The notes under the pieces were generated by a model. That model was not told the origin of the DNA. It saw only the letters and a program-made list of their open reading frames with translations, and searched no databases. From Escherichia phage UP30, in sequence record OX638287: a stretch of DNA of 49,834 bases, one strand, 5' to 3'. Shown here piece after piece: positions 18,816 through 38,680 of the stretch (position 1 is the stretch's first letter; every line of letters starts with the position of its first letter). The position numbers were made by a program, and so were the translations under genes.

Positions 18816-19484
18816 ATGCACTTACCAAATGGCGCACAAATTTTCGTAGAAACCTCTCGCGGCGATGAGATTGATGCTTCTGCGGTTAGCAATGCTGAGC
18901 GACCCGTTGCAACGGTAGCATCTAAGGGTGATTTAGCTAAAGGTGATTACGTTATTGTAACTCAGTCAACTTGGGCTAAAATTGTTAGCCGAGTCCTTAT
19001 TGTGACCGACGCTCAAGAAACAGAAATTACACTGGCTGGAATTGACACATCTGATACTCTTGTTTTCCCGTCTGGCGGCACAATGAGTTTTGCAAAAATT
19101 ACTGGTTGGACTGAGATTCCATGCGTGCAGGAGATTGGTCAGGACGGTGGCGAGCAGCAGTATTACACGTATCAGTGTTTGTCTGACGACAAAGAGCAGC
19201 AGATCCCGACTTTTAAATCTGCGATCTCGCTAACTTATACTTTTGCTCACGAATTTGATAACCCGATCTACCCGATTCTGCGCAAGCTGGATGCATCTGG
19301 TCAGGTAACTGCGGTTCGAATGTATGTACCTAAAGCAAGTGAGATGCGTATGTGGGCTGGCATCTTATCGTTTAACGACATTCCATCCACGCAGGTTAAC
19401 GAGATGGAAACGGTTGAATTATCCGTATCCCTGAAAGGTGACTTTACTTTCGTATCTTCCACTCTAGCATCGCCTGGTGCTTAA
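18816..19484 (+). CDS. major tail protein (putative)
   Basis: ATG 18816 after AAAGGAG; terminator downstream; precedes G/GT chaperone. Confidence 0.55.
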   Translation: MHLPNGAQIFVETSRGDEIDASAVSNAERPVATVASKGDLAKGDYVIVTQSTWAKIVSRVLIVTDAQETEITLAGIDTSDTLVFPSGGTMSFAKITGWTEIPCVQEIGQDGGEQQYYTYQCLSDDKEQQIPTFKSAISLTYTFAHEFDNPIYPILRKLDASGQVTAVRMYVPKASEMRMWAGILSFNDIPSTQVNEMETVELSVSLKGDFTFVSSTLASPGA

Positions 19485-19496
19485 ATCATATCCACA

Positions 19497-19525
19497 GGGG
19501 GCTTGCGCCCCCTTCTTCATTTCTG
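19497..19525 (+). terminator. terminator after major tail protein gene
   Basis: ggggg-cttgc-gccccc then T-rich tract. Confidence 0.5.
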
Positions 19526-19578: not shown

Positions 19579-19597
19579 ACCAATCAGGAGAAATATC

Positions 19598-19915
19598 ATG
19601 GCTAAATTCAATTTTGTGCTGGGCCAACTTCCAGACTTCAAACTTCCGGTAACTTTCACCATGCCAAACGGTGAAGATGCGACGATTATTTTTACCGTTC
19701 GCCACCTTTCCAGCAAAGAAGTACAGGATATGTACGCAAAACAGGGTGAAATGAATGATAGCGATTTCATCACTAAGATCGCGTCAGGCTGGAACGTTGA
19801 AGAAGAATTTAACGAAGATAACGCACGCAAACTGGTACAGTATTACCCATCCGCAGCGTACAATCTTACAGCCACTTACATTAAGGCTCTTGCCGGACAC
19901 CGCGCAAAAAACTAA
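19598..19915 (+). CDS. tail assembly chaperone (lambda gpG-like)
   Basis: Small acidic protein before tape measure; ends at slippery A_AAA_AAC. Confidence 0.65.
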   Translation: MAKFNFVLGQLPDFKLPVTFTMPNGEDATIIFTVRHLSSKEVQDMYAKQGEMNDSDFITKIASGWNVEEEFNEDNARKLVQYYPSAAYNLTATYIKALAGHRAKN

Positions 19916-20232
19916 AAAGGGCGGTCTATCTGTTATATCAGAAGCCGCCAACAGAAGAGCAACTACGATCGGTCGGCCTTAGTCTTTCTGACTATGAGGA
20001 CGAAGAACCGGAGACGATAATCGGTGACGCTGAGATGGTGAAGGCGTGGAATGTTTTTACGTCAATGCTCACTCAGTGGAGAAGTTCAGGCGCTGGCGCT
20101 TATGGTCTTGACTATAATGTTTTGCCTATGTTGTTTAAAATCTATAAAATAGAAGATGAAGAACTGGCATTGCAGGACGTTAGAATCATGGAAGCGAAAG
20201 CGCTTGAAATGATTGCTAAACAGAACAACTAA
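19598..20232 (+). CDS. tail assembly chaperone G-T fusion via -1 programmed frameshift
   Basis: Heptamer A AAA AAC at 19906-19912; -1 frame open from there to 20232. Confidence 0.55.
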
Positions 20233-20254
20233 GCCGCCGTTTGGCGGTTTTTTC
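20233..20254 (+). terminator. weak terminator/attenuator before tape measure gene
   Basis: ccgcc-gttt-ggcgg then T6. Confidence 0.4.
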
Positions 20255-20270
20255 GTATATAGGGGGTTAT

Positions 20271-23144
20271 ATGGTTGATAAGGTAGCAGGTCTTTCTCTT
20301 GACGTTGATGTGTCAACAGTACAGCGCGCCGTAAAGTCACTGAAAGAGTTTTCAAAGGCAAACGACCAAGCCGCTGACTCTATGGGGTCTTTAATCAATG
20401 AGGCAGAGGTTGCAAAGCAGAAGGCTAAGGAACACTCTGAACAACTCAAGCGACAGCGCAAAGAGTACGAAGCAGTAGAGAAAGCAATCGATCCTACAGT
20501 CGCAAAAATGGAGAAGTTAAGGGTTGCATCTCAGCAACTTGATAAGCTCTGGCAGCAAGGCGTTGTTCCAGATGACACATTTTTCCGTTTGGGTGAAATG
20601 CTGGATCTGCAAAACTCAAAACTTGCTCGCAGCCGCGCTATGCTGACGGAAGAAGGCCAGGCGGCATTACAGGAAGCAAAAGCAAAAGAGCAGGCAGCAG
20701 CGCGAAACAAAGCATTCATGGATGCTCTGAACGGTCAAGTTAACGCGATCGGCAAGACTCATGCTGAATTGATGGAACTGAAAGCGGCTGAGCTTGGTTT
20801 ATCGAAAGAAGCGGCGCCACTAATCGCAAAACTGAAAGATCAGGGTCGTGCAATGAATGCCGCAGGCATTAGCGCTGGGGAATATAAGCAGGCAATGAGG
20901 ATGCTTCCGGCACAGATTACCGATGTTGTAACCTCTCTTGCTTCCGGTATGCCTGTGTGGATGGTTGCCATCCAGCAGGGGGGTCAGATCAAGGACTCGT
21001 TTGGCGGGATTGGCAATACGTTTAAGGTATTGCTCAGCTATATTAATCCAGTCACAGCAGGTGTTGGCGTTCTCGTGGGCTCATTAGGTCTTCTGGCGAA
21101 AGCTGGATATGACTCTTACAAGTCAATCACTGATATGCAAAACGCTCTCATTGAGACTGGCGGTTATGCAGGCGTTACGGCTGATGACCTTGATTCAGTT
21201 GCTAAAAAGATTGCGCAGACGAGTAACTCAACCGTTGGAAGCATTCGTGATATTGTGACGGGGTTAGCAAGTTCTGGTAAGTACACCCGCGATCAGATCA
21301 AGAGCATCACTAAAGCTACTGCGGAGTGGTCCGCAGCAACCGGAAAATCAGCAAGCCAAATCATTGCTGAGTTCGACAAAATCGCAAGCGATCCGGTAAA
21401 AGGCTTGGAGAAGTTAAACGAACAATACAACTTCCTTGAAAAAGGACAGCTTACCTATATCGACACGTTAAGCCGGACAAAGGGCGAAACTGAGGCCGTA
21501 TCTGAAGCCACAAAATTATTCGCTGATGTGATGGAGCAGAGAATGAAGTCGATCGCGGATAATGCCACCCCACTTGAAAAGATGTGGAGCGATATTAAGC
21601 AATGGGCTTCTGACGCGTGGGGATGGGTTGGGGATCATACACTTGGTGCGCTGAACCTGATTATCGACGTTGTTCAGGGTACAGTGATTCAGGTAAAAAT
21701 GATTCTTGCGAAAGGTGACGAATACATCTCAAACTTTATCGCCTCCGCAATCAAGGCTACGCAGTCGCTGCCAGGTATGAGTAATTTTGGTGCTGATGTA
21801 CTGAAGGAGCAGGAGAACATTGTAAAAAGCTCCCGAGACAACTACGACCAGTTGGCCTCCGAACTTGACGCTATCAATGCTCGTGTAGAAAAAGGTGAGA
21901 TGGGCTACGTTGAAGCAATGAAGCAGCGACGCACTCTTGAAAAGCAGTACAGTGAGGAAACTAAGGAAGCAATAAGGAAAGAAGCGGAGGAAATCGAGAA
22001 GCGAAACCGAGAAAGAAATAAGCAGTCGAAAATTGTGCGCTCACCTACAGAGCAATTCGACAAGGAGTTAATTTCACTCAAAGCGCAGCTTAAGGTATTG
22101 CAGGAGCATAAGGAGATTGGTCAAAAACTTTCCGCACAGAGGAAGGCGTTGTTTACAACTGAGGCCACGATCGCTGTTCTTCGAGAGGCTAGTTCTAAAC
22201 GTCAGTTATCTGCGGAAGAAAAAGCATTGCTGGCAAGTCAGGAGAAAGTTGTCGAACTTGCAAAACAGAAGGCTGAGATTGGCGATCAGATTGTTAAGCA
22301 GCAGCAGTTAAACGAACTTACCGACAAGTCACTGAAGTTTGTCAATGAGATGACGGCGGCGACGGAGCAGCTAAACGCATCTCGCGGTATGAGTACCCGC
22401 GAAATGGAACGACAAGCGGAACTGGCTAAGATCACCACTGATTATATTAATGCAGGTGGCAGCGAAGGAGATGAAAAACTCCAGAACATGATCAAGGCAC
22501 AAAATGATTACTATGCTGCGGAAGATGCCAAGCGTGCTGACTGGTTAGCAGGTGCTGAAAGTGCATTTGCAGATTACGGCGATTCTGCAATGGATATGTA
22601 CGGTAACGTGTATGATGTTGCGTCAAGTTCACTTAACGGAATGAGTGATATGATGACCCAATTTCTGACTACAGGTAAGGCAAACTTTGCTGATTTTGCG
22701 AAAAACATTATCAGCATGATTATCAAGATGATTGCTCAGATGGTTATATTCAATACGATCTCTGGCATGATGGGCGGTAAGACATGGAGTTTTGCAGGTG
22801 GATTGACTTCTGGCGCTTCTGTGGCACCACAGGCAACTCCTACGCCTGCCGCCTCTGGTTTTAGGTCTTTATCTTCAGGTGTCGCTGTTACCTCGCTTGC
22901 TGCCGCTGCGGGTAGTGTGGCAACATCTGGATTTAACGCATCTAAATCAGCGCCGAAGGCAGTAAACCAATCAGCAGGTGGGACGGTCGTTGACGTTAGG
23001 GGCATGGAGGTTAAAGTTGACAACGGTTCAGATCCGAAAGGCATTTCTCAGGGCGTAGAAATGATGTTCAAAAAAATGATTCGTGAATCTTGTTCTCAAG
23101 GCGGCGAGGTTTACAATTACATTCAGGAAAAAACGGGAGGCTAA
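20271..23144 (+). CDS. tail tape measure protein (957 aa)
   Basis: Very long coiled-coil-rich ORF after G/GT, hydrophobic and Gly/Ala-rich C-terminal region; ATG 20271 after AGGGGG. Confidence 0.85.
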
Positions 23145-36661: not shown

Positions 36662-38680
36662 GTGACAATGAACATCAAAAAGCAGATTGCATTACTTGGC
36701 GAGGACTACATAAAACGCACTCAGGAGCGATTCACTGTTGGTGAGGTCGTTCCGTATCCGTATCAGGTTGTTGCTTATGCTGAGATAGCGAAGCGCCTGT
36801 CAAATTATGATCATCCATTCTTCGTTAAAGCGTCAGTATCTGCGGGTAAGACAATCATTTTTGCTATGGTTGCAAAACAGTGTCAGAAAATGGGGTTAAA
36901 AATGCTTGTGCTGGCACGCCAGGGTGAGATTGTCGATCAGGATAGCGAAGAGATCGACAACTTCGGTGTGACTAACTCTATCTTCTCAGCGTCACTTGGA
37001 ATAAAATCTTGCTACTTCCCGATCGTGGTTGGCTCTGAGGGTACTGTTGCAAACGGCCTCAATAATGAGTTGGCTGATTTTGTCCCGCATGTAATAGGGA
37101 TCGACGAATGTCACCAGGTGGATTGGGAAGACCTCGCGCAAGCAATCGAAGGAAAGGAAACGATTGAGCAGATGAGGGGGGAGAAAGGGAAAGTTATCAT
37201 GGAAGGGGAGATTCCTCTGATTGGTAATGATGGTAAGCCTCTTCTCGGAACTAAGCGAAGCCAGTACACGATCGTTATCATGGAGATGATGCGTCGCTGT
37301 AAAGAGGTTCACGGGCATGACCTAAGAATATTTGGTATGACGGGATCTGAATTTCGCGGCGTTGTTCCTATTCTTGTTGAGAACCCAAAGGCGTTAGGAT
37401 TCTGGCGTGAGCGCGTTACTGATATTGACACAAACTACCTCATTGAGTTTGGTTCTGTCGTTCCGACGATATTCGGTTCAACTGACGGGGTTCATTACGA
37501 TCTGGATAAGTTCAAGGCGTCGAGCGAGGACGGCGTGCAGGACTTTACAGAGAAAGATATGAAGGCGATGGAAGATGAAATCCTTCATGACAAATCTCTG
37601 ACTCAGCGAATCATGCAAATGGTCGCCAAAAAGGCTGAAGAACGCAACGCTGTTTTGATTACATGTGCCGGGGTTCGTCACTGTAAAGAGGCGGCGGCGG
37701 CACTTCCTCCGGGAAGCACCTATGCAATCATCACTGGAGATACAGACACCAAAACTCGCAAGAAGATTCTGGACGATGTGAGGGCCGGGAAGATTAAATA
37801 CACCTTTCAGGTAATGGCTCTCACGACTGGCGTTAACGTTCCAAATTGGGATTTCAGCGTCATACTTCGTAAGATAGGATCACTCACGCTGTTGATTCAA
37901 CTTTTGGGTAGGGGTATGCGACTGCTTAAATCATGGCAGGTAGCTGAAGGAATGGTCAAGCAAGATCATCTTGTATGGGATTTCGCTGGCACCATGGATG
38001 AGTTAGGCCAACTTTATTTCGATCCGATACTTGAGCAGGCTCAATTCCAGAAGCGTTTTGAAAACGGCAAAGACCCGAAAACGTGTCCGAAGTGTGGTTG
38101 CGTAAATAGCTTCTACGCTCGCCGATGCGTTAACGTTATCGACGGTGAGCGTTGTGATCATTTCTGGACTTCTCAGATTTGCGAGGACCAGGTGGATGAG
38201 CGTACCGGGAAAATCATTGTTAAAGGATGTGGTGCAGAGAATGACGTTGTTGCTCGCGTCTGCCGTTGCTGCGATGTTTCGCTTGTCGATCCTAACCTGA
38301 AGTTGTCAGGTAAAGCGTACACCAAGAATGACTGGTACGAGGTCAAGAATTTTGAGGTAACTCTAACCAAAAACCAAAAGGGCGTTATATACAAATACAC
38401 ACTGATTAACGATGATGGCGATGAGTTCAAGGCGTATGAAAAATTCTTCCCTGAGTCCGACTCTAAGATTTGCGGTACGCTATGGAAAACGAAGGGTGTA
38501 TTGCCTCATGTGTCAGATCCTAAAATGCGTCGCTACTTTATCGGAATGAAGAACGCCATCAAGATCGTGCAGTACTCGCATCATATCGCTCATCCGGTAC
38601 GTGTCACACACCGACGCAACCAGAAGAAGGAAGATATTATTTCACGTAAAGATTTCGGTATGGAGGATATCCCACAATGA
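36662..38680 (+). CDS. SF2 helicase with C-terminal zinc ribbon
   Basis: Walker A SAGKT, DECH box, CPKCGC...C-rich C-terminus; start may be ATG 36668. Confidence 0.75.
   Translation: MTMNIKKQIALLGEDYIKRTQERFTVGEVVPYPYQVVAYAEIAKRLSNYDHPFFVKASVSAGKTIIFAMVAKQCQKMGLKMLVLARQGEIVDQDSEEIDNFGVTNSIFSASLGIKSCYFPIVVGSEGTVANGLNNELADFVPHVIGIDECHQVDWEDLAQAIEGKETIEQMRGEKGKVIMEGEIPLIGNDGKPLLGTKRSQYTIVIMEMMRRCKEVHGHDLRIFGMTGSEFRGVVPILVENPKALGFWRERVTDIDTNYLIEFGSVVPTIFGSTDGVHYDLDKFKASSEDGVQDFTEKDMKAMEDEILHDKSLTQRIMQMVAKKAEERNAVLITCAGVRHCKEAAAALPPGSTYAIITGDTDTKTRKKILDDVRAGKIKYTFQVMALTTGVNVPNWDFSVILRKIGSLTLLIQLLGRGMRLLKSWQVAEGMVKQDHLVWDFAGTMDELGQLYFDPILEQAQFQKRFENGKDPKTCPKCGCVNSFYARRCVNVIDGERCDHFWTSQICEDQVDERTGKIIVKGCGAENDVVARVCRCCDVSLVDPNLKLSGKAYTKNDWYEVKNFEVTLTKNQKGVIYKYTLINDDGDEFKAYEKFFPESDSKICGTLWKTKGVLPHVSDPKMRRYFIGMKNAIKIVQYSHHIAHPVRVTHRRNQKKEDIISRKDFGMEDIPQ

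Follow-up and report, generated by a model that had tools for sequence, protein, structure and literature searches.

A tail-assembly-chaperone cassette with a probable -1 ribosomal frameshift at A_AAA_AAC in the T1-like Escherichia phage UP30

The G/T locus of Escherichia phage UP30 is very probably (about 0.9) a conserved tail-assembly-chaperone cassette in which a -1 ribosomal frameshift takes place on the slippery heptamer A_AAA_AAC. The locus was analyzed within a window of 49,834 nucleotides, i.e., the whole stretch of DNA studied (sequence record OX638287), and all positions given here refer to this window. The frameshift is real, deeply conserved and already known for the T1-like phages and the Drexlerviridae, and the combined evidence for it is about as strong as evidence taken from sequence alone can be for a programmed frameshift. 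From this evidence we infer the ribosomal nature of the shift, its low efficiency and the roles of G and GT. The G/GT function itself rests on the assignment of G to a Pfam chaperone family, on synteny and on the recoding architecture shared with known systems.

Position of the cassette and its two reading frames

The region is 91-93% identical at the nucleotide level to T1, Shfl1, JMPW2 and other Tunavirus genomes, and judged from its sequence the window belongs to a T1-like siphophage (Tunavirus, Drexlerviridae). The genes are arranged in the order tube gene, G/T, tape measure gene and gpM-like minor tail gene. The G/T locus thus occupies the canonical position of a G/GT cassette, between the tail tube and tape measure genes. 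On each side, the cassette is bordered by an intrinsic terminator-like hairpin with a T-tract (Table 1). In T1 (NC_005833), the equivalent of the upstream one carries the annotation of a rho-independent terminator, and the equivalent of the downstream one is listed as a terminator in both T1 and Sushi.

Gene G is preceded by a Shine-Dalgarno sequence and predicts a product of 105 aa and 11.9 kDa. Its last codons are CGC GCA AAA AAC TAA, giving the C-terminal end ...A-G-H-R-A-K-N, and direct reading of the sequence bore out the claim of the earlier note that the ORF ends in RAKN-stop on the heptamer A_AAA_AAC. Membership in a Pfam family was accepted when the score exceeded the curated gathering threshold. 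By this standard G belongs to PF08748 (Phage_TAC_4), which it matches with an E-value of 2.4e-36 and 125.1 bits (cut-off 21.1); the match spans residues 1-105 of G and profile positions 1-124 of 124, that is, the full length.

In the 0 frame the heptamer is read as AAA (19907-09) and AAC (19910-12), and it allows both tRNAs to re-pair in the -1 frame, as a canonical -1 signal does. Beginning at 19885, the -1 frame stays open up to a TAA at 20230-32 and overlaps G for just 28 nt 5' of the G stop. As the 0 and -1 frames are jointly open only at 19885..19915, any shift from G to T must fall there, and the heptamer is the sole slippery motif in the overlap. The length of the -1 frame had been put at 107 codons in the earlier note; it holds 106 sense codons from 19912, and the higher figure is reached when the stop (or the re-read AAA) is counted. 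The separately listed ORF 20035-20232 is, as had been proposed, the 3' part of this frame.

The T segment matches Pfam PF08809 (DUF1799) with an E-value of 2.7e-12 and 47.2 bits, above the cut-off of 26, over profile positions 4-80 of 80. When G and T were joined into a virtual fusion, with the predicted junction ...H-R-A-K-N-L-K-R-A-V-Y..., residues 1-210 aligned end to end with positions 1-212 of 213 of phrog_17368 (E-value 7.3e-86). Phage protein collections therefore already contain full-length GT proteins of the family. A search for homologous proteins with the 211-aa fusion gave only two matches, both to ORFs in the T frame with lengths of 123-136 aa. With a mean pLDDT of 48, the AlphaFold2 single-sequence model of GT was of too low a quality for a fold search, and the PDB sequence search returned nothing meaningful, the best match being proteasome alpha-2 with an E-value of 0.08.

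Table 1. Features of the G/T locus of phage UP30 and its surroundings (window coordinates).
Feature	Position	Strand	Remarks
Major tail (tube) protein gene	18816..19484	+	Upstream neighbour; PF08813 Phage_tail_3, E 7.8e-70
Intrinsic terminator-like hairpin and T-tract	19496..19523	+	Between tail tube gene and G
Shine-Dalgarno AGGAG	19586..19590	+	7 nt 5' of G start codon; from sequence
Gene G, predicted tail assembly (tape measure) chaperone	19598..19915	+	Standard 0-frame product; PF08748; phrog_569, phrog_17368; ortholog of T1 ST40
Dual-open stretch (0 and -1 frames)	19885..19915	+	-1 frame stop TAA at 19882-84
Slippery heptamer A_AAA_AAC	19906..19912	+	X_XXY_YYZ in the register of the G frame; from sequence
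T segment, -1 frame extension	19912..20232	+	PF08809 DUF1799; 106 codons and stop
0-frame stop TAA	19913..19915	+	Directly abuts the heptamer
Predicted RNA hairpin, 6 bp + 4 bp	19920..19949	+	7-nt spacer from heptamer; candidate frameshift stimulator
Intrinsic terminator-like hairpin and T-tract	20231..20260	+	Directly 3' of T stop, 5' of tape measure gene
Tape measure protein gene	20271..23144	+	Downstream neighbour; PF06791 TMP_2, E 2.4e-73; PF09718 lambda tape-measure C-terminal domain, E 7.6e-25
GT fusion (virtual)	join(19598..19912,19912..20232)	+	211 aa, 24.1 kDa

At the frequency of stop triplets in the window, the probability that the -1 frame stays open for at least 106 codons is about 0.005. 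Heptamers of the X_XXY_YYZ type are common, with 163 on the + strand and 326 on both strands, and the evidence therefore lies in the position and the conservation of the heptamer, not in its mere presence. In only one of the 326, the site at 19906, is a long upstream 0 frame found together with a 0-frame stop close by and at least 100 codons of -1 extension. The one weaker candidate (TTTCCCG, - strand, 38212) lies antisense to a 672-aa ORF and was therefore dropped.

Conservation of the slip site and of the -1 frame

A tblastn search with GT matched 1146 phage records, and in 1090 of them a single place covered at least 80% of the query. Each such place among the 60 matches listed was split into two pieces corresponding to two frames. 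The hosts of the matched phages include Escherichia, Klebsiella, Salmonella, Ralstonia and Pseudomonas. For the comparison of the slip site itself, 79 IMG/VR loci with an alignment to G were used, 75 of them regular and four irregular.

The heptamer A_AAA_AAC with an adjacent stop was present in 61 of the 79 loci (58 TAA, 2 TGA, 1 TAG), among them relatives with as little as about 30% protein identity. G_GGA_AAC directly adjoined by TAG was carried by eight loci, the most distant (32% identity), while five (L060-L064) had GCA_AAG_GTC_TAA, which holds the tetramer A_AAG that is shift-prone in E. coli, and one had GCA_AAA_GCC (A_AAA_G). An in-register slippery motif was thus kept or swapped for another in 75/79 loci. 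As to the irregular loci, three (L082, L084 and L088) showed A5 in the place of A6, two of these (L084 and L088) together with at least one earlier indel in G, and the fourth (L081) had indels in G. All four are most likely homopolymer or assembly errors.

The conservation extends to synonymous positions. The codon for Asn105 was AAC in 67/67 cases and never AAT, although with AAT the -1 frame would retain a Leu codon (TTA), and the codon for Lys104 was AAA in 61/66. The first -1 codon, Leu106, was CTA in 71/73 and CTG in 2/73; no other Leu codon gives rise to the 0-frame stop. A stop codon stood directly 3' of the heptamer in all 69 loci with a full heptamer. By comparison, the codon entropy of the neighbouring Ala97, Leu98, Ala99 and Gly100 was 1.7-2.0 bits. 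We conclude that the heptamer and the adjacent stop are frozen at the nucleotide (synonymous-site) level.

Downstream of the site, the -1 ORF extended for 102-109 codons in the 75 regular loci, while the +1 frame 3' of the G stop was open for merely 2-67 codons. Upstream, the -1 frame was open for a variable 28-241 nt among the IMG/VR loci. Conservation of the T protein sets in at its first residue (LKRAVYL.YQKPPTDxEL), i.e., at the slip site, and the alignment of relatives contained no conserved start codon or Met for T, the Met at 20035 included. The second ORF is hence in the -1 frame and has no conserved start of its own. When the window was compared with 14 close relatives, the substitutions in the 90 nt past the G stop fell 21/6/112 on positions 1/2/3 of the -1-frame codons, so that 112 of 139 were at third positions. 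Judged from this pattern, the stretch, which has no start codon, is under purifying selection as a -1-frame protein, and T appears to be made solely as the C-terminal portion of GT.

The proposal of the earlier note that this is the G/GT arrangement of long-tailed phages is accordingly supported by PF08748, by synteny, by PF08809 in a frame without a conserved start, by phrog_17368 and by the frozen heptamer. It had also been stated that the ORF 19755-19982 lies in a third frame and is not the T segment, and this ORF is indeed in the +1 frame. As a gene it was rejected: the +1 frame is not conserved in relatives, and the substitutions there follow the 0 and -1 frames.

Proposed mechanism of the shift and alternative explanations

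In the mechanism that we propose, most ribosomes would translate G and terminate at the TAA, giving the 105-aa chaperone. A small fraction would slip one base back on A_AAA_AAC, with the Lys-tRNA re-pairing from AAA to AAA and the Asn-tRNA from AAC to AAA. Decoding would restart at CTA (19912-14) and proceed through 106 codons to yield the 211-aa GT. By analogy with gpG/gpGT of lambda, many G and few GT molecules would coat the tape measure protein via the shared G domain, while the tail tube protein would be brought in by the T domain and, again as in lambda, G and GT would be absent from the virion. The frameshift would set the G:GT ratio.

In E. coli, A_AAA_AAC is far less shift-prone than A_AAA_AAG, as the re-pairing of AAC to AAA is poorly tolerated (PMC5009743; PMC4066793). 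Therefore, the efficiency of the shift may be very low unless it is stimulated. A low efficiency would fit the large excess of G over GT that is expected by analogy with lambda, where the G:GT excess is 30:1 (PMC5009743).

A possible stimulator is the hairpin predicted 3' of the heptamer, with the arms GGCGGU/GCCGCC and UCUG/CAGA. Its MFE is -15.4 kcal/mol (z -4.9), and none of 200 shuffled sequences was as stable. Equivalent hairpins were found in T1 (-15.9) and in the Tlsvirus YSP2 (-15.5), and the one in Sushi is weaker (-10.2) and differs in its 3' arm and register. Across 50 non-redundant loci, the mean 36-nt MFE dipped to -11.5 kcal/mol at +3 to +6 nt from the first base of the stop, compared with an overall mean of -5.1 and a standard deviation of the positional means of 1.6. 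In about 30 of the 50, the window after the stop was the most or second most stable within ±300 nt.

The case for the hairpin consists of this thermodynamic stability and of the positional dip in MFE. A fixed-register covariation test on the 50 loci gave 3 double-change pairs against 4.0 expected, and RNAalifold found no consensus structure among them. The stem bases also encode the conserved residues R-A-V and K-P-P. Since the hairpin is missing in about 17 of the 50 loci despite the same heptamer, shows neither covariation nor an RNAalifold consensus, and has stem bases coding for conserved residues, we regard it as a candidate stimulator in this lineage. An upstream SD-like stimulator of the dnaX type was considered as well and rejected. 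The only upstream G-rich element is the codon of Gly100, which is fully degenerate across the relatives (GGC 17, GGT 16, GGG 16, GGA 15; the window has GGA CAC CGC), and no conserved upstream SD-like element was found among them.

The TAA that abuts the heptamer may be part of the recoding signal. It is possible, and we suggest it tentatively, that the signal in T1-like phages is a three-part unit made up of the weak A_AAA_AAC, an obligatory adjacent 0-frame stop and a hairpin 7 nt 3', the stop and the hairpin having been selected to raise or tune shifting. If this were true, the GT:G ratio would be sensitive to release-factor activity. Such a unit would differ from the signal of lambda, where the heptamer alone is thought to be sufficient.

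The stop would also have a part in a 'shifty stop', in which the Asn-tRNA slips from AAC to AAA in the P site while the 0-frame stop sits in the A site, and CTA is decoded next. Here slow termination would give time to slip, the abutting stop would be integral to the signal, and the protein product would be identical. The unbroken adjacency of the stop in the full-heptamer loci, irrespective of whether it is TAA, TGA or TAG, agrees with this, as does the restriction of the -1 Leu codon to the two choices that create a stop. In addition, lambda has five sense codons between heptamer and stop, showing that adjacency is not a general property of G/GT, and the re-pairing of AAC to AAA in the A site is disfavoured in E. 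coli (PMC4066793). On the other hand, conservation also extends to the three bases that open the heptamer (A_AA or G_GG), which is predicted by tandem slippage and is not needed if only the Asn-tRNA slips in the P site. Furthermore, in the five A_AAG variants the slip codon is one before the last sense codon and the stop is not adjacent to it, and stop adjacency could be merely inherited. On balance, we consider slippage of this kind unlikely, and tandem slippage on the heptamer is the reading that we retain.

A shift arising already in the mRNA, by slippage of RNA polymerase on A6 that adds one A to some transcripts and gives the junction ...A-K-K-L-K-R..., is very improbable. Positions 19906-19911 do form a run of six A, and the three loci with A5 indicate that its length is unstable, at any rate during sequencing or replication. 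Bacterial RNA polymerase, however, slips efficiently at runs of about 8-9 or more. A ribosomal event is favoured because the A run is only six long and thus shorter than efficiently slipping runs, because the G_GGA_AAC and GCA_AAG_GTC relatives obey tRNA re-pairing although they have no long homopolymer, and because the strict 0-frame register, together with the invariant AAC, is what ribosomal slippage requires and transcriptional slippage does not.

It is equally improbable that T is an independent small protein made without any frameshift by internal initiation, for example at the ATG present at 20035 (65 aa). A separate downstream ORF is indeed found in the records of T1, SH6, YSP2, Motto and others, but its annotated start varies by record (equivalents of 19963, 20035 and 20065), Met is not conserved at 20035 (L076, L090 and L093 have none there), the 41 -1-frame codons from the G stop to this ATG are conserved as protein with third-position substitutions, and the frozen heptamer would be left unexplained.

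Known frameshift systems and meaning for the family

The frameshift of lambda gpG/gpGT was described by Levin, Hendrix & Casjens 1993 and by Xu, Hendrix & Duda 2004, 2013 and 2014, as cited in PMC5009743. According to the account given there, which refers to Xu et al. 2013 and 2014, the tape measure protein is bound by G as well as by the G portion of GT, the tube protein is brought in by the T domain, and the virion contains neither G nor GT. The UP30 cassette resembles that of lambda in its place between the major tail and tape measure genes, in a short G ORF that is prolonged in the -1 frame by a T part lacking its own start, in the canonical X_XXY_YYZ heptamer near the end of G, and in a small G with a fusion about twice its size. 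In contrast, the proteins have no detectable sequence relationship (BLASTP E-value 2.5; hhalign E-value 0.63 and probability 0.1%). The UP30 proteins belong to PF08748 and PF08809, whereas those of lambda belong to PF06894 (gpG) and PF06223 (gpT); the Pfam search of UP30 G/T gave no match to either of the latter two, both of which the lambda proteins themselves do match. The signals differ as well. The heptamer is A_AAA_AAC, weak in E. coli, in UP30 and G_GGA_AAG in lambda; the stop is adjacent to the heptamer in the former and 5 codons downstream in the latter; and a stable hairpin 3' of the site is predicted in UP30, while lambda has none. We conclude that the UP30 cassette would work like the lambda G/GT, yet stands outside the lambda sequence families.

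Within the Drexlerviridae, gp14/gp15 of Klebsiella phage Sushi are orthologous, at about 45% identity, and share the synteny, the flanking terminators and the -1 arrangement. The Sushi record has a joined two-piece CDS at the orthologous place. Its slip site is GCA_AAA_GTT (A_AAA_G), as opposed to the full heptamer of UP30. The frameshift has also been reported in the genome papers of Citrobacter phage Stevie, Klebsiella phage Solomon and E. coli phage U136B, and in a 2026 preprint the existence of a long and a short chaperone isoform is treated as common knowledge. In the literature on T1-like phages, we found no report that G and GT are both made, needed for tails and absent from virions, nor did we find in the literature an experimental demonstration of GT in T1 itself.

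Two E. coli systems resemble the UP30 signal in part. A_AAA_AAC is a proven low-level -1 site in the E. coli IS cluster 'A_AAA_AAC_1' (PMC4066793). The likeness consists of the identical heptamer, the ribosomes of the same host, two overlapping ORFs that become fused, and the lack of an established stimulator. This cluster, which we take to be IS1 insA-insB', is different in that its product is a transposase, and it is unrelated to the UP30 cassette in sequence or context. In dnaX (gamma/tau) of E. coli, a stable hairpin likewise lies a short spacer 3' of an A-rich heptamer. However, the dnaX site has A_AAA_AAG, the efficient bacterial form, together with an SD-like stimulator, and shifts at about 50%, leading to early termination. 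In UP30 the final codon is AAC, a conserved SD-like element is absent, and the shift would lengthen the protein.

The value of the present results lies chiefly in annotation. In the records of T1 and of the nearest relatives of the window, two separate ORFs are annotated, the second with inconsistent starts, and T1 and most Tunavirus records still show two unrelated small ORFs. In their place, the locus should be annotated as G (19598..19915) and GT (join(19598..19912,19912..20232)). The current understanding of phage tail assembly or recoding is unchanged by the results. The sole, mildly new angle is that a heptamer weak in E. coli is kept throughout the family along with a stop directly next to it and, in many of the lineages, a hairpin. 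The slip site would set the ratio of G to GT on which tail assembly is expected to depend, and the combination of weak slip site, stop and, often, hairpin in this family could bear on how weak slip sites are tuned.

Slip sequences in the relatives of UP30

At the position of the A_AAA_AAC heptamer, other slip sequences are substituted in different lineages, and they are listed in the table below together with the other features located in this part of the analysis. In the A_AAG lineage, no hairpin is found downstream of the slip site. Three related phage genomes carry a run of five instead of six A residues at the slip site, which places T, the −1 frame extension, out of frame for a −1 shift. 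Two of them, L084 and L088, have at least one further indel, located earlier within the chaperone gene G. Errors in homopolymer sequencing or in assembly are the most likely source of the A5 runs; alternatively, they could reflect a genuine length instability of the run.

A genome-wide heptamer screen gave a single further match in UP30, TTTCCCG at 38212 on the minus strand, with an upstream frame of 98 codons and a −1 extension of 67 codons. This candidate, antisense to a 672-aa ORF at 36662-38680 (+), was considered spurious.

Slip-site variants in related loci and terminator-like elements of UP30
Feature	Sequence or locus	Position	Remark
GCA_AAG_GTC_TAA	L060-L064	~1503-1515	A_AAG
GCA_AAA_GCC	L076	~1428-1440	A_AAA_G
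GCA_AAA_GTT	L101 (Klebsiella phage Sushi)	611-628	A_AAA_G
G_GGA_AAC_TAG	L093-L100	~1491-1500	
A5 run	L082	~1506	IMG/VR UViG 2974785742
A5 run	L084	~1505	IMG/VR UViG 2974728900
A5 run	L088	~1505	IMG/VR UViG 2706796530
Intrinsic-terminator-like hairpin + T-tract	UP30	19496-19523	3' of tail tube gene
Intrinsic-terminator-like hairpin + T-tract	UP30	20231-20260	overlaps T stop, immediately ahead of tape measure gene

Codon usage in the hairpin arms

The third codon after the shift (19918-19920) encodes Arg in 59 of the 73 sequences compared, and 47 of these use AGG or CGG, which are rare codons in E. coli. Among the window and its relatives, 49 of 70 have GCG as the Ala codon directly following, and 46 of 51 have CCG for Pro117. 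The arms of the predicted RNA hairpin are made of bases of these Arg, Ala and Pro117 codons. Selection acting on the stem, or in favour of a translational pause, could account for the codon bias.

Annotation and database reach of the G-T cassette

Annotation of the cassette varies across the genus and is inconsistent. In the public records compared, those of T1 (MK213796 / NC_005833; L001, L104), SH2, SH6, YSP2 and Motto, the "second ORF" starts at three differing positions, equivalent to 19963, 20035 and 20065 of the window, and RefSeq applies the one name "tail length tape measure protein" to G, T and the tape measure gene alike. The family of the fusion product GT gave only two matches in a large protein database search versus more than 1100 phage genomes by tblastn; G and GT seem hard to reach via the word index of that search.

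Terminator-like elements and the tape measure start

The mechanically generated ORF list places the tape measure start at TTG 20241, within the second terminator-like element. The start annotated in relatives is an ATG equivalent to 20271, preceded by GGGGG, and is the more plausible of the two. The two terminator-like elements flank the cassette on both sides, and rho-independent terminators are annotated at the equivalent sites in the T1 and Sushi records. The pair may attenuate transcription in steps along the order of the tube, chaperone and tape measure genes.
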